From Clostridiales bacterium (lineage in GTDB: Bacteria > Bacillota > Clostridia > Christensenellales > CAG-314), in the NCBI GenBank assembly GCA_004558105.1, contig SFEB01000004.1, forward strand, positions 5,120 through 69,119: 64,000 nucleotides of DNA, read 5' to 3'. The notes under the pieces are model-generated. The model was not told the DNA's origin, did not search any database, and saw only the letters and a list, made by a program, of their open reading frames with translations. This document shows, in pieces, positions 4,411 to 51,756 of the stretch. Each line of letters starts with the position of its first letter. Within the stretch, counting starts at the first letter, position 1. Made by a program: the position numbers and the translations under genes.

Positions 4411-5315
4411 TTAAGACTTTCCCCCAGACCGAGTACCTGTTTTTTTAATTCCTGCCGCGTTTTAGCCGAAAGCCTTCCGAGCGGCAATCTCGGTAAACCC
4501 ACGTTAAACCCCGCCATATTCAATAACGTCTTTATCGGAATAGGATTTGGCTCGGCAAACAGCAGGTTTATGAAATCAAGATAACGCAGTTGAATTTTTC
4601 TCGCTCTTTCAACGTCTCCGACCTGCCACGCCGTCAACAACTCGGCAACTTTGGTCGGCGTAAAGTTTGCCCATACCGAAACTACGCCTTTTGCGCCGAT
4701 TGACAGATAGGGCAATATCAAATCGTCGTTTCCGCAGTACAGCGAAAAGTTTTCGTCGGTCAGCGTCGCGATTTTTGCCGCAAACGAAAGATTTCCGCTT
4801 GCCTCCTTTATTCCCGCCACGTTCGGATGACTTTTGAGTTTTTTTGCCACGTCGAAAGAAATCTCGCAACCCGTGCGGCTCGGAACGTTGTACAGCATTA
4901 TCGGTAAATCCACCGCGTCCGCTACGCTCTCGAAATGACGGAACAATCCGTCGGCGTTGGTGCGGTTGTAAAAGGGCGTAACGACAAGCAACCCGTCCGC
5001 ACCCGTTTTAGACAACTCGCGCGAAAGTTCCGTCGCTTTCGCCGTATCGTTGCTGCCGCTCCCGGCAAGAACGAAAATTTCGCCGTCGGCGGCAGTTACG
5101 CATGTTTCCGTTACCAACCGCTTTTCGGCGTCGGTAAGCGTCGCCCCCTCTCCCGTCGTACCGCATGCCACGATTCCCACCGTTCCGCTTGCCTTGTGCC
5201 ACCCCACCAACTGTTTGATTTTTTTGCAATCCACTCGCCCGTATTTGTCAAAAGGGGTGACGAGGGCGACGATACTGCCGTACGGCAACTCTTTTTTTCC
5301 TTTCATTTTTCCCAC
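4407..5315 (-). CDS. dapA: 4-hydroxy-tetrahydrodipicolinate synthase
   Basis: 302 aa with DapA signatures (VALVTPF, GTTGE, YNVPSRTG, active-site Lys context GIKEASG). Confidence 0.9.
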   Translation of the reverse strand: MGKMKGKKELPYGSIVALVTPFDKYGRVDCKKIKQLVGWHKASGTVGIVACGTTGEGATLTDAEKRLVTETCVTAADGEIFVLAGSGSNDTAKATELSRELSKTGADGLLVVTPFYNRTNADGLFRHFESVADAVDLPIMLYNVPSRTGCEISFDVAKKLKSHPNVAGIKEASGNLSFAAKIATLTDENFSLYCGNDDLILPYLSIGAKGVVSVWANFTPTKVAELLTAWQVGDVERARKIQLRYLDFINLLFAEPNPIPIKTLLNMAGFNVGLPRLPLGRLSAKTRQELKKQVLGLGESLK

Positions 5316-11346: not shown

Positions 11347-11505
11347 TTATATTCTTGCTTAAAGTATTTGTCAACAAAATAAACGACAAAAACGAAAGTT
11401 TTTAGATTATTTTTTCCTAACGCTAAAAATTTTTCACGTTAAAAAACCCCGCTTAAAAAAGTACGAGGTTTTTTGCTCATTTTTTCCTATGTTTTTTCCG
11501 CCTTT

Positions 11506-13737: not shown

Positions 13738-14669
13738 CCTTCACTTTTTTAGACTCTATGCTGGCCGTGGCGGGAATGTTAATTTTCGCCGTTCCCGGCT
13801 TTTTATTCATCAAAACGAAACTTCTCGACGAAACGAGTATTCCCAACTTTGCAAAACTGCTGCTGTACGTTTGTCAGCCCTGCCTGAGCCTGTACAGTTT
13901 TAATCAGGCGACCAAAGCGAATATCAACCCCGTCAACGTCGGTATCGTGTTTTTGTTGGCGCTGGTCATGCAATGTCTGATTATTTTTCTCGTCTGGCTG
14001 GCGTTAAGAAAAAGGTTTGACGACGTAAACTACCGCGTGACCTGCGTTGCTGGCGCTTTCGGAAACGTCGGTTTTCTCGGCGTGCCGTTGCTGGAAAAAC
14101 TTCTGCCCGACTCCCCCGGTATCGTGGCGTATTCCGCCGCTTTTATCGTGGCTCTCAACCTGTTGGCATGGACGCTCGGTTGTTTCGTCCTGACAAAAGA
14201 TAAAAAATATTTCAGCGCAAAAAAACTGTTTCTGAACCCACCCATGCTTACTTTAATCGTGGCGTTGCCACTGTTTTTGACGGGGACGCAACTGCCTGCC
14301 GGCGCCGTTGATATCGAAGGCATCGTCACCACCCTCGGCAAAATGACCACGCCGCTTTGCATGATTATACTCGGTATGCGACTTGCTACCGTTTCGCCCA
14401 AAGATTTGTTCTGCGACTGGAAAGTGTATCTGGCTACGGCAATCAAACTTATCGTCCTGCCTTTAATCACATTTACGGTCATGCTCGCGCTCCCGTTGTC
14501 CGACGAAATAAAGGTCGCAACCTTTATACTCAGTTGTTGCCCGTCCGCCACGGTTGTGCTTAATCTGTCGGAAATGTTCGGCAGCGGTCAGAAGGTCTCG
14601 GCAAACATCATACTGCTCAGCACGATTTGTTGTATAGTCACTATTCCTTTAATGTTACTGTTGGTATAA
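13734..14669 (+). CDS. AEC (auxin efflux carrier) family transporter
   Basis: 311-aa polytopic membrane protein with the 5+5 TM layout typical of the AEC/malate permease family. Its start overlaps the upstream stop. Confidence 0.7.
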   Translation: MTFTFLDSMLAVAGMLIFAVPGFLFIKTKLLDETSIPNFAKLLLYVCQPCLSLYSFNQATKANINPVNVGIVFLLALVMQCLIIFLVWLALRKRFDDVNYRVTCVAGAFGNVGFLGVPLLEKLLPDSPGIVAYSAAFIVALNLLAWTLGCFVLTKDKKYFSAKKLFLNPPMLTLIVALPLFLTGTQLPAGAVDIEGIVTTLGKMTTPLCMIILGMRLATVSPKDLFCDWKVYLATAIKLIVLPLITFTVMLALPLSDEIKVATFILSCCPSATVVLNLSEMFGSGQKVSANIILLSTICCIVTIPLMLLLV

Positions 14670-15159: not shown

Positions 15160-15317
15160 AACGAAAGTCACTTAAAGCGGTTTACGGAAACAAAATAATA
15201 GCGGAAATCTTATTAAAATATATTGCAAATTCTTAACTATTTTGTTAAACTAAGTAGTGGAGTAATTTGCAATTTTTTATTTTTGCTCCATTTTTAGAAA
15301 AATTAAAGGGAGAACTT

Positions 15318-17068: not shown

Positions 17069-17212
17069 GGTGGAAAAGTTGTCCACGAAAACCAAAACAC
17101 CGATTATTTGATTTTTTATGGGTTTTTCAACCCGAAACAGGGCGTTTTTGGGGGTGTTTATCCACTTATCCACCAACTTATCCACATTTTTCCACCGACA
17201 CGGTGGGGATAA
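17069..17212. promoter_or_regulatory. DnaA-box cluster (seven boxes, five of them within 55 bp)
   Basis: Box TTATCCACT at 17158-17166. Box TTATCCACC at 17166-17174. Box TTATCCACA (perfect) at 17178-17186. Box TTTTCCACC at 17188-17196. Inverted TGGGGATAA at 17204-17212. Weaker boxes at 17069-17077 and 17079-17087. Consensus used: TTATCCACA. Confidence 0.75.
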
Positions 17213-18476: not shown

Positions 18477-19811
18477 ATGCAAAAAGAATACTATTACAGA
18501 CTAAAAGACGAAATGATGGAAACGTTAATCAAAACGCTTTCCATAGATACCGTCCGTACCGCACCCGCAGACGGGGCGCCTTTCGGTAAAGGCGTGGCGG
18601 ATTGTCTCGCTTTCGTCCTGGACGTAGCGAAAAAAATGGGTTTTGAAACCTACAACTGCGACAATTACGCCGGTCACGTAGAATTCGGCGACGGTGAAGA
18701 AATCGTCGGCGTTCTCGGACATCTCGACGTCGTTCCCGTCACCGACGGTTGGACGACTCCTCCCTTTACCCCGACTATCCGCGACGGGAAACTGTACGCA
18801 CGCGGAGCAAGCGACGACAAAGGACCTATGATTGCCTGCCTGTACGCGTTAAAAGCATTAAAGGACAGCGGTTTTAAACCGTCAAAACGCATTCGCCTGA
18901 TCTTCGGTTGCGACGAAGAAACCAATATGGAATGCGTAAAATATTACAAAACAAAAATGCCCTTACCCGACGTCGCTTTCAGCCCCGACGGCGATTTTCC
19001 CGTCATCAACATCGAAAAAGGTATCTATGCCTTCGACCTCGACGTGGGAGAATTGCCCAAAGAAATCAAGCAAATGCACGCAGGTACCCGCGTTAACGTC
19101 GTTCCCGACCTCTGCGAAGTTACTCTTTGCGGTTGCGTAGACGAAAACCTTATCAAAAAGAGCGGTATCGAATACGAAAAGAACGAGGACGGGTGCTACC
19201 GTCTCACCACGCGTGGCGTTTCCTGCCACGGCGCAAGTCCGTATCTCGGCAAAAACGCAACGTGGCAGATGTTCGAAGGCTTGTCGGTAATTTTCCCCGA
19301 CAGTGAAACTTTGCGTTTCGTTGCAGACAAAATGTGCAAGGACGTGTACGGCGAAAAATGGGGTTTTGCTCTCCATGACCAACCGAGCGGAAAAATCACT
19401 CACAATATAGGCGTCGTCGACCTGGTGGACGGCCATTTGAAAATAAAACTCGACGTACGCTTTCCCGTTACCTTTAAAAGCGATTTCGTCCGCGAGTGCC
19501 TGCTGTCCAACAGCATTGCAAGTTTAAAAATCGACCAGAGCCATATAAAGGAACCGCTCTTCGTCAAAGCCGACGAACCGTTGGTCGTGTCTTTGCTTAA
19601 AATCTACAACGATTTTACCGGCAGTAACGCGCTTCCCCTCGCCATCGGCGGAGGAACGTATTCGAGAGTTCTGCCCAAATGCGTGGCGTTCGGCCCCGCC
19701 TTCCCGGGAGAAATGACGGCTATACACGAAAAAGACGAATGGATTTCTCTGGAAAACCTCGACAAAATGGCGTTGATGTACGCTCAGGCAATAGAAGAAT
19801 TGGCAAAATAA
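18477..19811 (+). CDS. pepV: M20 family dipeptidase (PepV/Sapep-like)
   Basis: Motifs GHLDVVP, RGASDDKGP, GCDEE. The start is moved to the ATG at 18477 (MQKEYYY), downstream of an AGAGG SD. Confidence 0.8.
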   Translation: MQKEYYYRLKDEMMETLIKTLSIDTVRTAPADGAPFGKGVADCLAFVLDVAKKMGFETYNCDNYAGHVEFGDGEEIVGVLGHLDVVPVTDGWTTPPFTPTIRDGKLYARGASDDKGPMIACLYALKALKDSGFKPSKRIRLIFGCDEETNMECVKYYKTKMPLPDVAFSPDGDFPVINIEKGIYAFDLDVGELPKEIKQMHAGTRVNVVPDLCEVTLCGCVDENLIKKSGIEYEKNEDGCYRLTTRGVSCHGASPYLGKNATWQMFEGLSVIFPDSETLRFVADKMCKDVYGEKWGFALHDQPSGKITHNIGVVDLVDGHLKIKLDVRFPVTFKSDFVRECLLSNSIASLKIDQSHIKEPLFVKADEPLVVSLLKIYNDFTGSNALPLAIGGGTYSRVLPKCVAFGPAFPGEMTAIHEKDEWISLENLDKMALMYAQAIEELAK

Positions 19812-35274: not shown

Positions 35275-35588
35275 TTTTTCGTTTTAACCTTTTTGTAACC
35301 GCTCTCACTTGCCGGTCGGCAGAAATCAACGGACGTTAAAAACCCTAACTCGCCTGACACAAAACGAATTCACAGGAAAACCAACGGAAAAGCCTTGATT
35401 TTTGCGTCAGAACAAACGCCGTAAAACTTTTAATAATAACGTTAATAGCGTCATAAAAAACTTATTCAAGATAAAACCTTTATTCGCATATATCCGTATA
35501 AAACGACACAATATAACCCTACATCCGAAAAACACAACAAAAGAGTATTCAAAAACGTAATATCGTATAAGATCTTATATCGGTAAAG

Positions 35589-35620
35589 AAATGCTGACGA
35601 AAATTTCGTCAGCATTTTAA
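35589..35620. terminator. Bidirectional hairpin terminator at the left edge of the gene desert
   Basis: About 12-bp stem AATGCTGACGAA / TTCGTCAGCATT, flanked by A- and T-rich runs. It lies 315 nt downstream of the tadA stop. Confidence 0.6.
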
Positions 35621-36065
35621 TTGTCGGAAAACATAGAAAATCAAACTACGAAACAGCAAAAACGTATCGTATTTTTCGTTTTAAAAACGGATTCTGCCTT
35701 TCAAAACCCGCTTACCTTTCCTTGCGGCATTAATTACCACAGGATACGATTCATTGACGTACAATGCAATTCACCAAGATTTCTATCGAACCGCGCCGCC
35801 GATAAACGTTTATAAACCCGTAAAATCCTTACATTTTTACCCTTTTAAACCCAACAACAATACCCGTTAATGAAATGACGGCTTCCCACAAGACCGTAAA
35901 AAAGTACTTCAACCAAATAACACTTATATCAGCACCGGTCAACGTACGTGCGCATTGCCAACGTTTTAACAATCATTAAATTAAATATAAACGTCTATTT
36001 CCCGAGCAACGCCCATGCCGAGACGATGCGCAAAACAATCGCGACGAATACCGCCGATTTGATAT

Positions 36066-36081
36066 TGTTTCACGTGAAACA
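36066..36081. other. parS: parS site 1 (ParB binding site)
   Basis: TGTTTCACGTGAAACA. Perfect 16-bp palindrome matching the Firmicute parS consensus TGTTNCACGTGAAACA. Confidence 0.85.
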
Positions 36082-36126
36082 AAAAGCGACAAAATACCCA
36101 TGCTATCGCCCGAAACCCACAATAAA

Positions 36127-36142
36127 TGTTTCACGTGAAACA
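36127..36142. other. parS: parS site 2
   Basis: TGTTTCACGTGAAACA. Identical to site 1 and 61 bp from it. Confidence 0.85.
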
Positions 36143-37002
36143 ATCAAACAACAGCAAGCAAAAACCAATATAACATAAAACCGCATATTTTCTCTGAATT
36201 TTAAAAAATAATGAAAACACAAAAAACAAGACAATTTTTACAAATAGTAGAAAAACATTGCATTTCGCTCTTATCCGACACAATAATACTTAATTTAAAA
36301 ACTTATTGATTAACAATTAATAAATTATTTCATTTTTGACGTAAACAACTTAGAAAATAATTTATTTGTTTATTTTTGGGTTTTGAAAATTTAATTGAAC
36401 TCAACAAGCGAACCTAAACCATACACAACTTAAACACCAAAAACAACAATAAACCCACTTCAAAAAACCAAATTGAAAACAAAAAAGACACAACACACAT
36501 ACGCCTCGCCGCAACATGTGCACACAACAACAAACCCCACAAAAGCCACAGCAATAATGAACATTTTGGCATTTTTTCGCTTTTAGAGAAAAAATTTTTA
36601 CAAAAATCGTATTATTGGGCGTTTTAAAAACTGAAAAAAGCCAGGTTTTTCCTTGTGTTGAGCGATTTTACCCCACCCTGAAACGCTCTCAGACAGAATT
36701 TTTTAAAACCTTCGGCGTTTTTGGCGCGATTTTGGTACCAATGTACCGGCTTTTCCGTACGTTTTTGAGCCCTAGCGAAAAGAGCACCGCACCAAAAAGA
36801 CACATACCGGTCGCACCGTCAGAAAAACCAAAACAACAAGAAAACTATAATACAACTTAAAACACAACGATTTACACATCAAATATTTTTATTTTACCAA
36901 CCAAAGCAAGGATTTACGCGCTTAAACGTATAAAAGCATAAAACACAACCCAAAAAAAGCAAACCACAACCGAACCTAAGCTCTTTTACCCGCTAAAAAT
37001 TG

Positions 37003-37018
37003 AGTTTCACGTGGAACA
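37003..37018. other. parS: parS site 3
   Basis: AGTTTCACGTGGAACA. This is the reverse-complement form of the B. subtilis TGTTCCACGTGAAACA type, with one flank mismatch. Confidence 0.8.
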
Positions 37019-37064
37019 TTCACACTAAAATACAATAAAAACGACTAGTTTTCAAGAAAAACAA

Positions 37065-37080
37065 CGTTTCACGTGAAACA
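37065..37080. other. parS: parS site 4
   Basis: CGTTTCACGTGAAACA. The 14-bp core is perfect and one outer base differs. Confidence 0.8.
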
Positions 37081-37166
37081 AACCCAAATAAGCCGCCTTA
37101 AAGCATCAGATTTATGCTATTTGCACAAAAACTATTAAGAATGTTGCTTTGTAATTAAAATTTTTA

Positions 37167-37182
37167 CGTTTCACGTGAAACT
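37167..37182. other. parS: parS site 5
   Basis: CGTTTCACGTGAAACT. The 14-bp core is perfect and both outer bases differ. Confidence 0.75.
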
Positions 37183-37251
37183 TGTTGTACTGTTTGTGCG
37201 CTTTTTGCCGTATTTGGTAGCATTAGGGGTGAATTAATTATTGTTTTTCTT

Positions 37252-37267
37252 TGTTTCACATGAAACA
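37252..37267. other. parS: parS site 6 (variant)
   Basis: TGTTTCACATGAAACA. A single central mismatch (CACATG instead of CACGTG). Confidence 0.6.
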
Positions 37268-37363
37268 ATCGTTAAATTGTGTTATTTGTCTTGCGATTTA
37301 TATTTTTTTGACGGAGTCTTTCGCTTTTTTGGGTTTTTTACGCCATATTTGGTGTTATTTTCT

Positions 37364-37379
37364 TGTTTCACGTGAAACT
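37364..37379. other. parS: parS site 7
   Basis: TGTTTCACGTGAAACT. One outer mismatch. Confidence 0.8.
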
Positions 37380-37656
37380 TGACGCTTTTGTATGGTTTGT
37401 TTTGGTTTTTTTTGCGTTATTTTTTCATTTTTTTGTGGGATATATTTACTTGTTTTGAGTGCTATTTTACTTTTTTGGAATAAAATTGGCATTATATCGA
37501 TGTTTTTTGGCTCAACATGGCTGTTTCCGATGTTTTTATTTGGTATCCGGGCTTAGATAAGTCTTAACCATATCGAGTAGCAATTTATTTGTACTGCTGT
37601 GCTCTGTTTTTTTGCATGTTTGTTTTGTCCGATTATTGATAAATTGCTTTAAATAA

Positions 37657-37695
37657 AAAATAATCTACACTTACATATTAAATGTAGATTATTTT
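37657..37695. terminator. Bidirectional AT-rich hairpin terminator at the right edge of the gene desert
   Basis: 13-bp stem AAAATAATCTACA / TGTAGATTATTTT with a 13-nt loop. It lies about 170 nt downstream of the yitT-family stop on the minus strand. Confidence 0.55.
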
Positions 37696-37866
37696 CATAT
37701 AAATGCTTAATATTTACGTTTTTTAATTAGTGTTTTGGATGTTATCTTGTAAATATTGTTTTGGATCGTGAACAATTCGCTTAAAAGTTTGCCTTTGTGT
37801 ATACTCTTTAAAAGTCTTTGTGACGTTATCTTGTGCGGTCTACCTGTTGCTTAGTCATCTTGTGGG

Positions 37867-38760
37867 TTATTTTATCTTTTTAAAATTACCTACCGTTTCG
37901 TTGACGTTTTCTGCCACGGCAAAAGTATTGTCGTATTTTTTTATTATCGATTGAAAATCAACCATCTGGTGCTTGTTGACGACGCAAAGTAAAATACTTT
38001 TTTCCTGTTGAGAGTATCCTCCGTATCCTACTATCCTGGTAGAGGTATGCTTCAATTTTGTAATAATTTCATCATTGATTTCTTCTGCGTGAGTCGTTAC
38101 CACGATAAATTTACATGCCGTTTTACAACCTCTGAGGATAAGATTACCTATAAAGTTTGATATAAAGGCGTAAGCGATACATTTGCATACCGGAAGGTAA
38201 TTCAATGCAATTTCGCTTGTTTTTTCGTTGATATCGGCGTAAACAAACAGCGAAGCTACGGCAACGGCGGCGTTTATTACGAAAGTGACGTAAAAAAAGT
38301 TCCACTGCGGCTTTTTGATACTTAAGAATTTTGACACCACGTCGGTACCGCCGGTAGACGCGCTCGCTTTGTACAAAAAGCCCGATACTACGCCGCATAT
38401 TGCCCCGGCTATAACGGCAGGAAAGACGTCGGTATCGGCGGCAACGTATTTAAAACGTTGTATATCCCATGCGCCCATCAAAAGGTAGAATAAAGAATAC
38501 GCCACGCAAAAAGTAAGCGTTTTGGCGGCATACTTTTTATCGATGAAGAAAAACGCAAATACGCACAGCGGAACGTTAATAATAAGAGACATGTATCCGA
38601 TACTGAATCCGCATTTATATTGTATCATCGTAGCGATGCCGTTAATGCCTGCCGGCGCAAAGTTGTTTTCTACGATAAAAAGCCGATAATCGAGCGCCAG
38701 CACTGCGCCCAAAACGATGACGAAAGCGTATTCTTTCGCCTTTGAAATAATTTTTTTCAT
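37867..38760 (-). CDS. YitT family membrane protein (DUF161 repeats plus C-terminal DUF2179)
   Basis: 297 aa, polytopic. Family hallmark STGGTDV. The C-terminal soluble domain (TRIVGYGGYSQQEKSILLCVVNKHQMVDFQSIIKKYDNTFAVAENVNETVGNF) fits DUF2179. Confidence 0.75.
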   Translation of the reverse strand: MKKIISKAKEYAFVIVLGAVLALDYRLFIVENNFAPAGINGIATMIQYKCGFSIGYMSLIINVPLCVFAFFFIDKKYAAKTLTFCVAYSLFYLLMGAWDIQRFKYVAADTDVFPAVIAGAICGVVSGFLYKASASTGGTDVVSKFLSIKKPQWNFFYVTFVINAAVAVASLFVYADINEKTSEIALNYLPVCKCIAYAFISNFIGNLILRGCKTACKFIVVTTHAEEINDEIITKLKHTSTRIVGYGGYSQQEKSILLCVVNKHQMVDFQSIIKKYDNTFAVAENVNETVGNFKKIK

Positions 38761-39036
38761 TAAAAAAGCCCTCTTTCCCTAAAGAAAAAGGACACAACAA
38801 ACCTGTCGTCAGAACGACCTATCGGACAAATCGGTTGTATCCTCCTCACCAAAGAATATTTCCCTTCACATGCGGCAGGTCTCCTGACTCGTGATTTGCA
38901 CCGGGCAACCCGGAGCAAACGGATTCCTTCTCGGACGACGTCCAATGGGTAACAATCCTTTAACACTTACAGTAGTGGTAGCTGTCCCGGTTTTTCACCG
39001 GGTTCCCTCTTTTCGGCGCGAAAAACGCACCGCATG
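38761..39036 (-). promoter_or_regulatory. Cobalamin (B12) riboswitch with expression platform
   Basis: Minus-strand RNA contains AGAGGGAACCCGGUGAAAAACCGGGACAGCUACCACUACUGUAA. It also contains CAUUGGACGUCGUCCGAGAAGG and the B12 box AGUCAGGAGACCUGCC. P1 is closed by CAUGCGG (39036-39030) pairing with CCGCAUG (38875-38869). A downstream hairpin UUUUCUUU-AGGG-AAAGAGGG plus a U-run overlaps the SD. Confidence 0.85.
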
Positions 39037-39051
39037 TTTATTGACCGTATA

Positions 39052-39980: not shown

Positions 39981-41345
39981 TTATTTTCCGAAAATCATGT
40001 CTTTTATATCTTTTGCCTGCGCCGCATATCTGGGGTCGTTGGCAACGAGGTCCGCCATCTTATCTCTCGTATACATTATCGTTGTGTGATCTCTTCCGCC
40101 GAAGTACTGACCTATCGACAACAAGGGGAGAGTAAGCAACTCAGTAACAAGATATACGCACATTTGTCTGGGTTCTACTATTTCTTTTGTCTTTTTTTTG
40201 CCTATTATATCTTTTTTTGTAACGTTGGGGTAATATTTACAGACGCAATCAACTATTTTATCGATTGTAACGAGTTCCGTTTTATCGTCGTTATAATCTT
40301 TCAAAGCCGAATTTACGACTTCCATATCGTTGACGTTTTTACAGATAAGTTGCGAATAGCAGATTATTTTAGTAAGAACGCCTTTCATTTCTCTGATATT
40401 CGTCGTAACCTTATTGGCTATAAGTTTTAATATTTCGTCGTCGATATTTTGTTTTTCCGCCAACGCCTCGCTTTTTAAAATTGCTATTCTTGTTTCCAAA
40501 TCGGGTTCGCTTATATCCGCCACCACGCCGCCCTGAAAACGCGTTCTCAATCTTTCTTCCAACGGCGCTATTTCCTGAGGCGGGCGGTCGGAACAAATGA
40601 TAATTTGTTTATCTTTGTAGTACAAATCGTTGAAGGTGTGGAATAATTCTTCTTGCGTGGATACCGTCTTAGCTATAAACTGAATATCGTCTATCATCAA
40701 AACGTCTACGCTGCGGTATCTCTTTCGGAATTCCTTCATTTCGTCGGTATGCTTATTACCGCGCAACGCTTCAATCAGTTCGTTCGTAAACCGTTCGCAA
40801 CTGATATTCATACACCTCAGTTTCGGATTGGTTTTTCTTATATGATTGCCTATTGCGTTAAGCAAGTGTGTTTTTCCGAGTCCGACGCCGCCGTATATAA
40901 ACAACGGGTTATATTTCGTTCCTGGGTTTTGCGCTACAGCCTTACTCGCTGCCGCGGCAAACTCGTTGCTTTTGCCGACGATAAAATTGTCGAAGGTACA
41001 CTTTGGAGAAAAACTGCAAGTCGTTTCTTCCACGATTATGTTTTCACTGTTTATTTCGCCTATATCCGCATTAGCGTATTTTTCGTATTTTTCCCTTTCT
41101 TCCTCTAAAATAAACAGCACACCCTCGTTGTGAGGCATTACTTTTTTACAACTTTCGGAAATAACGTCGATATATCTTTCTTCCACGACTCGTTTTTTTG
41201 CGGAATTCTCGCACAACAAGACCACGTTATCCTCGTATATACATACGGGTACCAATCCTTCTATCCATGATTCGTAAGCAAACGCGGTAACGCGCGCCTG
41301 AATTTCTATCAATACGTTTTCCCATACCTGTGTAGTTGAAATCAT
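39981..41345 (-). CDS. dnaA: Chromosomal replication initiator protein DnaA
   Basis: 454 aa. Walker A GGVGLGKTHLL, Walker B LMIDDIQF, sensor and box VII regions, and the C-terminal DNA-binding domain (GGRDHTTIMY). Confidence 0.95.
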   Translation of the reverse strand: MISTTQVWENVLIEIQARVTAFAYESWIEGLVPVCIYEDNVVLLCENSAKKRVVEERYIDVISESCKKVMPHNEGVLFILEEEREKYEKYANADIGEINSENIIVEETTCSFSPKCTFDNFIVGKSNEFAAAASKAVAQNPGTKYNPLFIYGGVGLGKTHLLNAIGNHIRKTNPKLRCMNISCERFTNELIEALRGNKHTDEMKEFRKRYRSVDVLMIDDIQFIAKTVSTQEELFHTFNDLYYKDKQIIICSDRPPQEIAPLEERLRTRFQGGVVADISEPDLETRIAILKSEALAEKQNIDDEILKLIANKVTTNIREMKGVLTKIICYSQLICKNVNDMEVVNSALKDYNDDKTELVTIDKIVDCVCKYYPNVTKKDIIGKKKTKEIVEPRQMCVYLVTELLTLPLLSIGQYFGGRDHTTIMYTRDKMADLVANDPRYAAQAKDIKDMIFGK

Positions 41346-41757
41346 TTTTTTATTTCCCTTTGTTAAAATTTAGATACTTTCACTTATAAAATAATTGTAA
41401 CATAAGAATTCGTTTTGTCAACTTAATATTTTTATCTTTTCGTTAATTTTTTTTATAAATTTTTCTTGTGTTTTTATCAACGCTTGCTTTTTAACGGGTT
41501 TTGGTGTATAATAACTAACCGAAAAATCTTTTTATTTTTTTTTCCACAAATTAAAGATTAAAATCTTGATACTTTGTGAATAAAAAACCGACTTATTAAA
41601 GATTTTTCCATACTCGTTTTAAGGAAAAAGAACATCGTTTTTTGCTTTATTTTTAAAGACGTTTATCTTCTTTAAAAAAAAGTTTTCAACAATTCTACAT
41701 TACCTACTGTTACTACTACTTAATCAAAGAACCTTAATAAAAAGGAGGACGGAAAAA
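41346..41757. other. oriC: AT-rich dnaA-dnaN intergenic region, candidate oriC
   Basis: 412 bp, very AT-rich. One-mismatch DnaA boxes TTTTCCACA (41540-41548) and TGTGAATAA (41575-41583), plus several two-mismatch boxes. Plus-strand promoter TTGCTT-17-TATAAT at about 41485-41513. Trinucleotide-periodic run TAC TGT TAC TAC TAC TTA at 41705-41722. Confidence 0.5.
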
Positions 41758-42861
41758 ATGAAATTAATTTGCGAAGGTCTCGATTTAAGCGACGCCATCA
41801 ATAAAGTCAGCAGAGCGTTACCCGCCAAAGCGGTAAACCCCATACTCGAAGGTATTCTTTTTTCGGCAAAAGGAACGAAACTTACGGTTTACGCTTCCGA
41901 TACGGAGATATCAATCAAAAAGACGATAAACGCCGAAATAATAGAAGAAGGTTCTATACTTTTACCCGGAAGATTTATAGGAGAATACATGCGTAAACTT
42001 TCCGATCAACAGATAGAACTTTTCACCAACGAAAAAAATCAGTTGCGTATAAAATACGGAGACAGCGAAGGATTCGTACAGGTACTGGATAAAAACGAAT
42101 ATCCGTTTAACGAACAGGGAAAAGGCGATTATAAAGTCACGATAAATCAAAAAGACCTTAAAGACGCGATAGAAAAAACGATATTTTCAGTCGCACAGGA
42201 CGACACCCGTCCTGTGTTAAAAGGTTGTTTAATGGAATTTGAGGGCAGACGTATGACGGTTGTCGCGCTTGACGGATACCGTCTTGCGTTAGTTAAAAAG
42301 CCCTTAACGCAGGAAGCGGAAAAGAAAAACATAATAGTACCTGCAAGAAGTTTATACGAAGCGTCCCGCCTGATGGAAAGTCAGGAAGACGAAGCGGAAA
42401 TGTTCGTTACCGACAAACAGGTAGTGTTCGATATCAAAGATACGGAAGTTACCGCGCGTTTAATAAACGGAGAATTCGTAAATTATCGTCAGATATTGCC
42501 CGACAACTACGTTTCCAACGTCGTAATAAACAAAAAACAGTTTGAAGAAAGTTTAGACAGAGCGAGCCTTCCCAGCCGTCAGGAAAAAAACAATCTAGTA
42601 AAGCTAGAAGTAAAAGAAAAAGTCATTACCATCAGCGGAACGTCGGAGTTAAGTAATATAAAAGAGAATCTCGCAATAAGTCTTAAAGGTAAGGACATAA
42701 CCATAGCGTTTAACGCAAAGTATCTTGCCGACTGTCTGAGAGTGATGGAAAACGAGTTTATAAAGATAAACTTTACGTCTTCGGTATCCAGCACGACAAT
42801 TACCCCGTGCGAGTCCGACGAATGTTTGTATCTGGTTTTACCCGTAAGATTAGTAGGCTAA
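41758..42861 (+). CDS. dnaN: DNA polymerase III subunit beta (sliding clamp)
   Basis: 367 aa. Typical three-domain clamp pattern (MKLICEGLDL..., LDGYRLA, INGEFVNYRQILP). SD AAAGGAGG. Confidence 0.95.
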   Translation: MKLICEGLDLSDAINKVSRALPAKAVNPILEGILFSAKGTKLTVYASDTEISIKKTINAEIIEEGSILLPGRFIGEYMRKLSDQQIELFTNEKNQLRIKYGDSEGFVQVLDKNEYPFNEQGKGDYKVTINQKDLKDAIEKTIFSVAQDDTRPVLKGCLMEFEGRRMTVVALDGYRLALVKKPLTQEAEKKNIIVPARSLYEASRLMESQEDEAEMFVTDKQVVFDIKDTEVTARLINGEFVNYRQILPDNYVSNVVINKKQFEESLDRASLPSRQEKNNLVKLEVKEKVITISGTSELSNIKENLAISLKGKDITIAFNAKYLADCLRVMENEFIKINFTSSVSSTTITPCESDECLYLVLPVRLVG

Positions 42862-49942: not shown

Positions 49943-50713
49943 ATGTCAAAGATTATTGCCATCAGCAACCAGAAAGGCGGAGTAGGCAAAACCACAACCG
50001 CCATCAATATGTCGGCTTGTATTGCCGCAACGGGGAGAAAGGTTCTGCTTGTAGACCTCGATCCGCAAGGTAACGCCACCACGGGTATCGGCATTGACAA
50101 GAGTAAGTTGGAAAAAAACATTTACGACGTTTTGCTATTGAACGAACCCGTTGCAAACGTCGTTTTGCCCACGCAGGTAGAAAATCTCGACGTTCTTCCC
50201 TGTAACAAAGATCTCGTCGGAGCGGAAATTCCGATGAGCGGCTTTGCAAAGAGAGAATTCGTGTTGAAAACGGCGCTCGAAAGCGTAGCAGACAGGTACG
50301 ATTACGTCTTTATCGACTGTCCGCCGTCTCTGGGTTTGCTGACGCTCAACGCATTGACGGCATGCGACGGGGTTATTATTCCCATTCAAAGCGAATTTTT
50401 CGCATTGGAAGGTCTCAGCCAGCTTATTTACACGATTCGCCTGGTTACCAAGCACACCAACCCCGACCTGAAGGTCAAGGGGGTAGTGATGACTATGTAC
50501 GACAGCCGCAGCATTTTAACGAGACAGGTTACGGCGGAAATTCAGAAGTATTTCGGTACGGCAGTATACAGCGTACCCGTCCCCCGCAACATCAAGGTGA
50601 CGGAAGCGCCAAGTTTCGGCGTGCCGGTATCGGTCCATGCGCCTCGCAGCAGCGGCGCCGTAGCGTATCAGAGAATAACGAAACAGTTTTTAGCAAGAGA
50701 GGAGGGTAATTAA
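49943..50713 (+). CDS. parA: Chromosome partitioning ATPase ParA (Soj)
   Basis: 256 aa. Deviant Walker A KGGVGKTTT, followed by DLDPQGN. Confidence 0.95.
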   Translation: MSKIIAISNQKGGVGKTTTAINMSACIAATGRKVLLVDLDPQGNATTGIGIDKSKLEKNIYDVLLLNEPVANVVLPTQVENLDVLPCNKDLVGAEIPMSGFAKREFVLKTALESVADRYDYVFIDCPPSLGLLTLNALTACDGVIIPIQSEFFALEGLSQLIYTIRLVTKHTNPDLKVKGVVMTMYDSRSILTRQVTAEIQKYFGTAVYSVPVPRNIKVTEAPSFGVPVSVHAPRSSGAVAYQRITKQFLAREEGN

Positions 50714-51756
50714 TGGCAGCGCAAAGAAAAGGTCTTGGCAGAGGTTTGTCTGCTTTACTGGGTATGAACGACATGGGCGACGACGTTTTGTCCACACCCG
50801 TAGCCCCCGGTTTGAATACGGAACCGCAACAGGAACAACCGCGTGAAGAATTTGTCGATGTCGGCTTGACGACGGAAGACGTTACGGGCGTTGCGGATAT
50901 GGATTTTGCCCCGGCGGAACCGACGGAAGAGGAACAACCGCAGGAAAAAATAGTGGCGGTCAATATTGCCGTTTCGGATATCGACCCCAACTACGAGCAA
51001 CCGCGTAAAAACTTTGACGAAGCCGCTCTCAACGAGTTGGCGGAAAGCATTCGTCAGCACGGAGTTATCCAACCCATCGTAGTAGTGCGCATGGGTATGC
51101 GCTTTATGATTATTTCGGGCGAAAGACGTTGGCGCGCAAGCAAACTTGCCAACAAGACGACCATCCCCGCAATAATCAAAGACTATACTCCGCAACAAAT
51201 CAAAGAAATCGCCATCATCGAAAACTTGCAGAGAGAAGACCTCAACCCCGTGGAAGCGGCGCGAGCAATCAAGCAGTTGATGGAAGAATTCAATATGACG
51301 CAGGAAATGGCGGCAGATCGTATCGGCAAGAGCCGCAGCGCAATCGCCAATACACTCCGTTTGCTGACCTTGGACGAAAAGGTGCTGGATCTTATCGCCA
51401 AAGGCGAACTGTCTGCGGGACACGGCAGGGCTCTGGTTGTGATAGAAAACAAAAACGATCAGGTTGCCATCGCCCAAAAAGCTCGCGACAGCCAGATGAG
51501 CGTAAGAGAACTTGAAAAGAAGGTCAAGGATTATCTCAACCCCAAAAATGACGAGAAAGAACTCGCCCGCAAGAAGGAGGTTTGTCTCGAACTTAAAGAC
51601 CTCGTAGTAAACATGCAAAGAGCGTTTGCCACCAAAGTCACGGCGGTCGGCAATAATAAAAAAGGTCGTATCTGTATAGATTATTTTTCCAGCGACGACC
51701 TCGACCGCATCTGTACTATGATAAGAGACTGGCAAGACAATCTGCCCACGGCGTAA
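50713..51756 (+). CDS. parB: Chromosome partitioning protein ParB (Spo0J) with extended acidic linker
   Basis: 347 aa. N-terminal KGLGRGLSALL peptide, ParB/Srx CTPase box GERRWRA, HTH region (QEMAADRIGKSRSAIANTLRLL), and the ENLQREDL motif. Confidence 0.95.
   Translation: MAAQRKGLGRGLSALLGMNDMGDDVLSTPVAPGLNTEPQQEQPREEFVDVGLTTEDVTGVADMDFAPAEPTEEEQPQEKIVAVNIAVSDIDPNYEQPRKNFDEAALNELAESIRQHGVIQPIVVVRMGMRFMIISGERRWRASKLANKTTIPAIIKDYTPQQIKEIAIIENLQREDLNPVEAARAIKQLMEEFNMTQEMAADRIGKSRSAIANTLRLLTLDEKVLDLIAKGELSAGHGRALVVIENKNDQVAIAQKARDSQMSVRELEKKVKDYLNPKNDEKELARKKEVCLELKDLVVNMQRAFATKVTAVGNNKKGRICIDYFSSDDLDRICTMIRDWQDNLPTA

Follow-up and report, generated by a model that had tools for sequence, protein, structure and literature searches.

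In Bacillus subtilis, the parS sites recognised by the partition protein ParB (Spo0J) lie mostly within genes, one of them in spo0J itself; Listeria innocua is likewise a Firmicute. In Caulobacter crescentus, Pseudomonas aeruginosa (parS1–4), Corynebacterium glutamicum, Myxococcus xanthus and Streptomyces coelicolor, the sites are clustered, usually beside parAB and partly within or between genes. Clusters served by a single ParAB pair are the common bacterial arrangement (PMC8357415; PMC7333895; PMC7022226), and most bacteria have their parS clustered within 5–40 kb, scattering being restricted to a few lineages that include the Bacilli (PMC8357415; PMC7333895). The sites of B. subtilis are scattered over ~0.75 Mb (PMC8357415). 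The number of parS ranges from 1 to more than 20, with L. innocua among the species that have 20–23 near-origin sites (PMC7333895; PMC7022226). Here we describe seven parS-like palindromes in a 64,000-nucleotide stretch of DNA (the window) from a Clostridiales bacterium (GenBank assembly GCA_004558105.1, contig SFEB01000004.1), concentrated in a gene-free gap close to dnaA. They are very probably chromosomal parS, the loading sites of the ParB encoded 13 kb away, and would together form one compact, origin-proximal centromere.

Like C. crescentus and the other clustered species named above, the window carries several 16-bp parS within a few kb near oriC. Unlike in those species, the array lies 12.6 kb from parAB, across oriC, with all seven sites in one 2.6-kb gene-free gap, and its density is very high (7 in 1.3 kb). 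The Spo0J–parS system of B. subtilis, used as reference, has 10 sites, 8 of them in the origin domain, with the consensus TGTTNCACGTGAAACA, from which the seven sites of the window differ by 0–2 mismatches. The two systems share this consensus, Spo0J is the closest solved relative of the window ParB (6SDK), and both hosts are sporulating Firmicutes, but the window has no site in parB and its sites are all clustered and intergenic. Another gut Firmicute, an uncultured Bacilli metagenome-assembled genome (MAG; L004, L numbers designating the loci compared here), also has a dense intergenic array near dnaA, which is a perfect 53-bp tandem duplication. The window sites, in contrast, lie in unrelated spacers and are therefore old or independently arisen. 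The L004 repeat (19005–19202; TGTTCCACGTGAAACA in each unit, at least four copies) stands directly downstream of gyrA and reaches the contig end.

An initial annotation of the window had presented the contrast with B. subtilis as a surprise, because it took that species as the reference. This was overstated, since clustering is the norm (PMC8357415, PMC7333895) and other gut Firmicutes, such as that represented by L004, have tight intergenic arrays. Against the general rule the array is ordinary, though unusually dense and unusually gene-free. Read as a centromere, it offers a clear Clostridia example of the compact bacterial type, and it cautions against treating the scattered, intragenic pattern of B. 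subtilis as typical of Firmicutes.

The parS array and its cognate ParB

The whole window was searched for the 16-mer TGTTTCACGTGAAACA with up to three mismatches, alongside 100 shuffled sequences. Eight matches were found against 0.58 expected from the shuffles, none of which (0 of 100) attained eight. Seven of the eight have 0–2 mismatches, and all seven lie inside 1.3 kb; the remaining match (position 11430, TTTTTCACGTTAAAAA, three mismatches) was judged not credible as a parS site. At the distal end of the array, parS-1 (36066–36081) and parS-2 (36127–36142) are both perfect copies of the consensus TGTTTCACGTGAAACA and form a pair 61 bp apart. These are followed towards dnaA by parS-3 (37003–37018, AGTTTCACGTGGAACA, two mismatches), parS-4 (37065–37080, CGTTTCACGTGAAACA, one mismatch), parS-5 (37167–37182, CGTTTCACGTGAAACT, two mismatches, both at the outermost positions), parS-6 (37252–37267, TGTTTCACATGAAACA, one mismatch, a central CACATG variant) and parS-7 (37364–37379, TGTTTCACGTGAAACT, one mismatch). 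Start-to-start spacings of 61, 876, 62, 102, 85 and 112 bp divide the array into a distal two-site sub-cluster and a five-site sub-cluster on the dnaA side. The spacers are mutually unrelated in sequence, and the sites are therefore not recent tandem copies. Outside the array, the half-sites GTTTCAC/GTGAAAC occur at background frequency. Two same-species contigs that reach ~10 kb past each end of the window contain no site at ≤2 mismatches, and across the total of ~84 kb surveyed all seven sites (≤2 mismatches) fall in one 1.3-kb stretch. The mismatch search reproduced exactly the seven coordinates, sequences and spacings given in the initial annotation. Its statement that the 64 kb hold no further copy is confirmed at ≤2 mismatches, and extends to ~10 kb beyond each end; the search agrees that none lies inside parB, and the reported distances to dnaA and parAB are borne out: the dnaA 3′ end is 2.6 kb away, the dnaA|dnaN spacer ~4 kb and parA 12.6 kb.

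The proteins expected to act on such sites are encoded in the same window. The parA (soj) gene (49943–50713, plus strand) encodes a canonical ParA of 256 amino acids with AAA_31/CbiA/ParA domains, and parB (50713–51756, plus strand) a protein of 347 amino acids with ParB_N, HTH_ParB and ParB_C domains, its C-terminal domain being one for dimerisation. Among solved structures, B. subtilis Spo0J (6SDK, E = 5e-54) is its best relative. The window ParB has a ParB_N domain match at E = 3e-30, ENLQREDL and, at 136–142, the cytidine triphosphate (CTP)-binding motif GERRWRA; this fits the N-terminal GERRxRA motif on which clamp closure and spreading depend. The helix-turn-helix (HTH) region has GKSR at 205–208, N213, T214, T219, G236 and R239; the Caulobacter residues Q162, G170-K171-S172-R173, N178, G201 and R204 align to Q197, G205-K206-S207-R208, N213, G236 and R239, respectively. 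Jalal et al. (PMC7383237) report that R173 and G201 do not vary among ParB proteins, Noc having Q and R in their place. Their equivalents R208 and G236 are present, and the protein is therefore predicted to be a parS-specific ParB rather than Noc. The N-terminus begins MAAQRKGLGRGLSALLG, and the ParA-contact peptide RKGLGRGLSALL is present. Judged by its sequence, the window ParB has all it needs to recognise parS, bind CTP and contact ParA.

The 412-bp spacer between the divergent dnaA (minus strand) and dnaN (plus strand) genes (41346–41757, 23% GC) is the likely oriC, because it contains degenerate DnaA boxes and a TAG/TAA trio run; both are also present in the dnaA|dnaN spacer of L001, a related locus. 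The cumulative GC-skew minimum of the window, at ~41.8 kb, coincides with this spacer, and the parS array lies 4.0–5.3 kb from it.

Loci of relatives were chosen by their DnaA homologues, and parS and the motif described in the next section were scanned around dnaA. Two contigs of the same species, L014 and L015 (99% DNA identity), keep all seven sites; parS-1 is identical in both, and parS-3 is kept in L014. The single change is at an outer position of parS-4 (37066), which reads CTTTTCACGTGAAACA in both contigs, so that outer positions drift within the species. In L001, a sister lineage with ~75% DNA identity over cvpA–dnaA, eight parS-like sites lie in 1.2 kb of DNA free of open reading frames (ORFs). 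This array is downstream of cvpA as in the window, though the flanking genes differ; its distal pair is 47 bp apart (15713, 15760), and the site at 15221 is a CATATG variant. Sites were also found in L007 (DnaA 86% identical; 4+1 sites), L009 (82%; 2+1), L016/17 (77%; 1+1) and L010/11 (75%; 1+1), and as 2–4 sites flanking cvpA, beside parAB, in L012/13 (2+1+1) and L018, whose DnaA is ~60% identical. All parS in these loci are intergenic. The array position is thus kept across relatives while flanking genes change. The earlier proposal of a clustered, origin-proximal parS centromere is supported by the cognate ParAB, by the retention of the array within the species and by clusters at the equivalent place in relatives. 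Its term 'dedicated' would imply that most parS of the genome lie in this array, and the sequence covered amounts to ~84 kb.

We favour the centromere reading on the strength of the match to the consensus, enrichment far beyond chance, a cognate ParA and ParB, proximity to the origin and the conserved position in relatives, together with the published prevalence of clustered parS. Several observations count against it. L002 (DnaA 83% identical) and L019 (56%) have no parS within 7–10 kb of dnaA, so not every member of the clade has the array in this position. Close relatives have anywhere between 2 and 8 sites, which is consistent with weak selection on copy number, and some sites have changes in the core (CACATG at 37252, GTGGAAC at 37003). 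Other parS may exist beyond the ~84 kb covered, and the host is uncultured.

If the array works as ParABS systems are established to do, every site would nucleate ParB dimers, which would take up CTP and close into sliding clamps. These clamps would spread across the ORF-free gap (35275–37866; 2,592 bp, 34% GC against a window mean of 47%), which we propose as the ParB loading and spreading platform, and into several kb on either side, a zone that probably includes dnaA and oriC. ParA would move the ParB complex, and the complex would load SMC-ScpAB. With seven adjacent sites, loading would be faster and redundant although SMC would still enter at one point only, in keeping with the argument of PMC8357415 on the avoidance of collisions.

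Alternatively, the sites would be functional parS but their number would serve nothing in particular. A single site would then be enough, and further copies would come and go by drift in dispensable intergenic DNA, new ones being tolerated only beside existing ones. We regard this account of the copy number as possible but rather unlikely. It draws on the range of 2 to 8 copies among relatives with DnaA 75–96% identical, on the drift of outer positions even within the species, and on the lack of one-to-one orthology between the sites of the window and those of L001; a review also describes self-reinforcing parS expansion near a native site (PMC7333895). On the other side, the unrelated spacers speak against recent tandem duplication, and a spacing of ~60 bp recurs in three lineages (61 and 62 bp in the window, 58 and 62 bp in L001, 64 and 61 bp in L007). 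Furthermore, two lineages independently keep a layout of 5–6 plus 2 sites around the same conserved element.

A conserved motif between the sub-clusters

Neither a tRNA nor an Rfam match was found in the gap, and relatives share no ORF with it. Its longest stop-to-stop frame is 99 codons, every frame is interrupted by stop codons in at least one relative, and Rfam searches of the gap by gathering threshold and by E-value returned noise only. A small protein was sought by comparing six-frame peptides with relatives; the sole match overlies a nucleotide-conserved element and has stops in L014 and other relatives, and was rejected. When the gap is compared with that of L001, only the parS cores and this element of ~190 bp (36553–36745, plus strand) align. 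The element is 67% identical to its L001 counterpart within surroundings that cannot be aligned; it contains no conserved ORF, and its predicted RNA fold is not significant.

Within the element is a non-palindromic 22-bp motif, CTGAAACGCTCTCAGACAGAAT (36678–36699, plus strand; family consensus CTAAAACGNNCTSAGRCAGAAT), which stands between the two-site and five-site parS sub-clusters. It is single-copy in the window, with a weight-matrix score of 34.6 against a shuffle maximum of 14.8. Read from dnaA, the window and L001 have the same layout of 5–6 parS, the motif and 2 parS. The motif also adjoins parS in L014, L007, L009, L010/11 and L012/13, the last with two inverted copies. A metagenome scan using the motif alone returned 19 loci, of which 18 have parS within ~60–250 bp; the other match is inside a gene and looks like a chance occurrence. 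In at least nine related lineages the motif is thus found with parS, even though the DNA around them can no longer be aligned.

In L012-like loci, the 3′ half of the motif, TGAGRCAGAAT, is repeated in inverted orientation 35–40 bp away. A/G variation (position 16) and C/G variation in either half-site copy are uncompensated, which favours a protein-binding DNA site over an RNA stem. RNA folds around the motif were no better than shuffles (z-scores of −0.97 and +0.10). A structured RNA or small protein gene in the gap was accordingly rejected, with the Rfam hits being noise, the fold z-scores insignificant and no frame open across relatives. The motif as a mobile-element or plasmid site was also discarded, as it had no match in plasmid or phage collections, and no description of its sequence was found in the literature.

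Several observations concern the history of the motif. The two copies in L012 (4292–4313, plus strand; 4784–4805, minus strand) are inverted and ~490 bp apart, each with an inverted half-site 35–40 bp to its inner side. An invertible segment was considered for such pairs and rejected, since every two-copy locus has an identical flank pairing. In one metagenome contig, L034 (754–775), the outer flank of one copy adjoins the inner flank of its partner among different genes. This sole discordant junction is not a simple inversion, and recombination has therefore broken the DNA at the motif on at least one occasion. Between the window and L014, which are 99% identical elsewhere, a patch of ~300 bp around the motif (36470–36790) is 12–17% divergent, and 4 of the 22 motif positions differ. 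This patch looks like a local recombination import or hotspot.

A described likeness is to the origin anchor/insulator RicO of Staphylococcus aureus, a MerR-like protein with reported family members in Clostridia that binds nine non-palindromic, origin-proximal 18-bp sites (bioRxiv 10.64898/2026.03.06.710092). These ricS sites span ~700 kb, and the nearest ricS–parS pair is 5 kb apart (bioRxiv 10.64898/2026.03.06.710092). The site ricS1, GTTTGTCTGAGGTTAGAC, and the motif core have the 8-mer CTCAGACA in common (as reverse complement). This was the one ricS sequence compared, and the chance of such a match is ~0.005 before allowing for the several known motifs compared. A second block is shared with ricS1 in L010, with 5 extra nucleotides between the blocks. 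As in RicO–ricS, and the related RacA–ram and RocS, the motif is non-palindromic, ~20 bp long, origin-proximal and distinct from parS. Unlike the spread-out ricS sites, it is present as a single copy inside the parS array, and the spacing of the shared blocks differs from that in ricS1 by 5 nucleotides. No gene for a RicO-, RacA- or RocS-like protein, marked by a MerR-type winged HTH, a coiled coil and an amphipathic helix, was found in the 64-kb window, nor in the fetched loci by a crude HTH regular expression. The resemblance of the motif to a RicO site is only a lead, not a finding.

These observations allow a composite centromere to be proposed, in which the motif would bind a second origin organiser, possibly an anchor of the RicO/RacA/RocS family or an insulator, while the A+C-rich, inward-reading arms described below would stop transcription. 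We advance this tentatively. The single copy in 64 kb, the presence of parS at 18 of the 19 loci found by motif alone, the uncompensated half-site variation at a place with no conserved ORF, RNA fold or Rfam match, and the 8-mer shared with ricS1 all point in its direction. Set against them, the linkage of motif and parS may partly be inherited synteny, as many of the metagenome matches are close to L012. The comparison with ricS involved one sequence and a chance probability that rises with each further motif considered, and no RicO-like gene accompanies the sites in the window or the fetched loci. The orientation of the motif relative to oriC varies between lineages, and four of its positions differ between strains that are 99% identical. 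If the motif does bind a second origin organiser, RicO-type anchors would be physically tied to the ParB loading site, and the motif would provide a handle for finding the protein. The motif and the non-neutral arms are the parts of the locus most worth following, the former as a testable lead.

Strand composition of the gap and the position of the origin

The gap comprises two arms of opposite strand composition, measured as keto skew, (G+T−A−C)/N, on the plus strand. The distal arm (35275–37100) is A+C-rich, with a keto skew of −0.245, a GC skew of −0.29 and an AT skew of +0.22; the dnaA-proximal arm (37101–37866) is its mirror, G+T-rich with a keto skew of +0.313. The same polarity is found in L001 and in L007, where a MatE gene splits the arms. 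By comparison, four-fold degenerate sites have skews of −0.131 in the left replichore (genes of either orientation) and +0.105 in the right, and other intergenic regions of the window stay within ±0.19. The arm skew is 2–3 times the neutral replication skew, and in the proximal arm its sign is opposite to that predicted for an origin at 41.5 kb; it is therefore not neutral, and it is one of the observations in favour of a composite centromere. The description of the gap in the initial annotation as DNA that encodes nothing stands for proteins and known RNAs, but leaves out the 22-bp motif in its ~190-bp conserved element and the strongly non-neutral composition of the arms.

As a consequence of the mirrored arms, transcripts running into the gap from the gene on either side would be A/C-rich and G-poor, with ~10% G in many 100-nucleotide windows. 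Such a composition resembles that of Rho-utilisation (rut) sites, and a centromere insulated from transcription is put forward purely as a hypothesis; that the case for Rho is one of base composition counts against it. More speculatively, the mirrored gene-free arms and the motif could be accessories of the centromere, providing for example a second origin-organiser site, insulation from transcription, or both. The fullest version would be an insulated module conserved in the clade, consisting of the parS array, one CTAAAACGNNCTSAGRCAGAAT site bound by a second factor, and the mirrored arms. In that module a RicO/RacA-like protein could serve as the second factor, acting as an anchor at membrane or pole or else holding back ParB and SMC, and the G-poor arms would make transcripts entering from either side unstructured and C-rich, to be terminated before they reach the ParB complex. 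With all of these parts taken together, we consider this reading doubtful.

A different explanation for the mirrored skew is that replication starts in the gap and not in the dnaA|dnaN spacer, the switch at ~37.1 kb being ordinary leading-strand skew. The switch, from A+C-rich on its left to G+T-rich on its right (plus strand), has the polarity of an origin. At four-fold sites, yitT, cvpA and dnaA have an intermediate skew (−0.04 ± 0.05, an underpowered estimate), which gives no clear placement of these genes in the left replichore. However, an oriC is expected to have a cluster of DnaA boxes next to an AT-rich unwinding element, and the gap (35275–37866) contains no box at ≤1 mismatch, whereas boxes and a trio run are present in the dnaA|dnaN spacer both here and in L001. 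In addition, the amplitude of the skew is too large for simple replication skew, and the cumulative minimum lies at ~41.8 kb. Because the gap lacks DnaA boxes, an origin inside it is very unlikely.

In some relatives the parS core lies within perfect palindromes of 26–28 bp at gene 3′ ends, followed by T-runs (L012 4848–4877; L016 11770–11797 and 13339–13368), and these sites may double as bidirectional terminators. Although they lend some colour to the idea that the window palindromes are mainly something else, such as bidirectional terminators or sites of another CACGTG-binding regulator, this is highly improbable, as the window palindromes are not extended and no T-runs follow them, seven terminators in gene-free DNA would be senseless, and the exact parS consensus occurs together with a cognate ParB.

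Genomic setting and further features

The gap is flanked on the left by a tadA-like deaminase gene (plus strand) and on the right by a YitT/DUF2179 membrane-protein gene (37867–38760, minus strand). To the right of the latter follow a cobalamin riboswitch, cvpA (minus strand), dnaA (39981–41345, minus strand) and the 412-bp spacer, and after the spacer dnaN (plus strand), yidC, jag, mnmE, mnmG, rsmG, parA and parB. The riboswitch (38857–39049, minus strand, 84 bits) is upstream of the YitT/DUF2179 gene, whose connection with B12 is not obvious. Genes for SpoIIE, SigE and SpoIIGA were found in the window, and the host is an uncultured, spore-forming gut Clostridia bacterium.

Two strong hairpins lie within the gap, at 35591–35625 (ATGCTGACGAAAATTTCGTCAGCAT, then a T-run) and 37657–37695 (AAAATAATCTACA...TGTAGATTATTTT). 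They follow tadA by 320 bp and yitT by 170 bp and probably terminate transcription of these two genes. A comparable hairpin, ATCTACA...TGTAGAT, is present in L001 at ~14405–14440. In L007, L009, L010 and L016 a MatE gene separates the parS groups; the possibility that the 860-bp spacer of the window is the remnant of a decayed MatE gene was rejected, as tblastn found no trace of one. Intrinsic bending of the gap DNA was likewise set aside: the 10.5-bp peak of AAA/TTT periodicity is absent from the distal arm and borderline in the proximal one, where it reaches 1.36 and the 95% level of the shuffles is 1.32.

The arrangement of dnaA and dnaN around an AT-rich spacer is divergent in the window (39981–42861) and in L007, L009, L012, L016, L018 and L019, compared with the usual rpmH–dnaA–dnaN order. 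The genes rpmH, rnpA and yidC through parAB come after dnaN, an arrangement kept in relatives down to 56% DnaA identity. At a distance of ~24 kb from oriC, between a Na/Pi cotransporter gene and a RadC-like gene, the window also contains four DnaA boxes within 55 bp (17158–17212): TTATCCACT, TTATCCACC and TTATCCACA on the plus strand and TTATCCCCA on the minus strand. This cluster recalls the oriC-distal DnaA-box clusters of B. subtilis.

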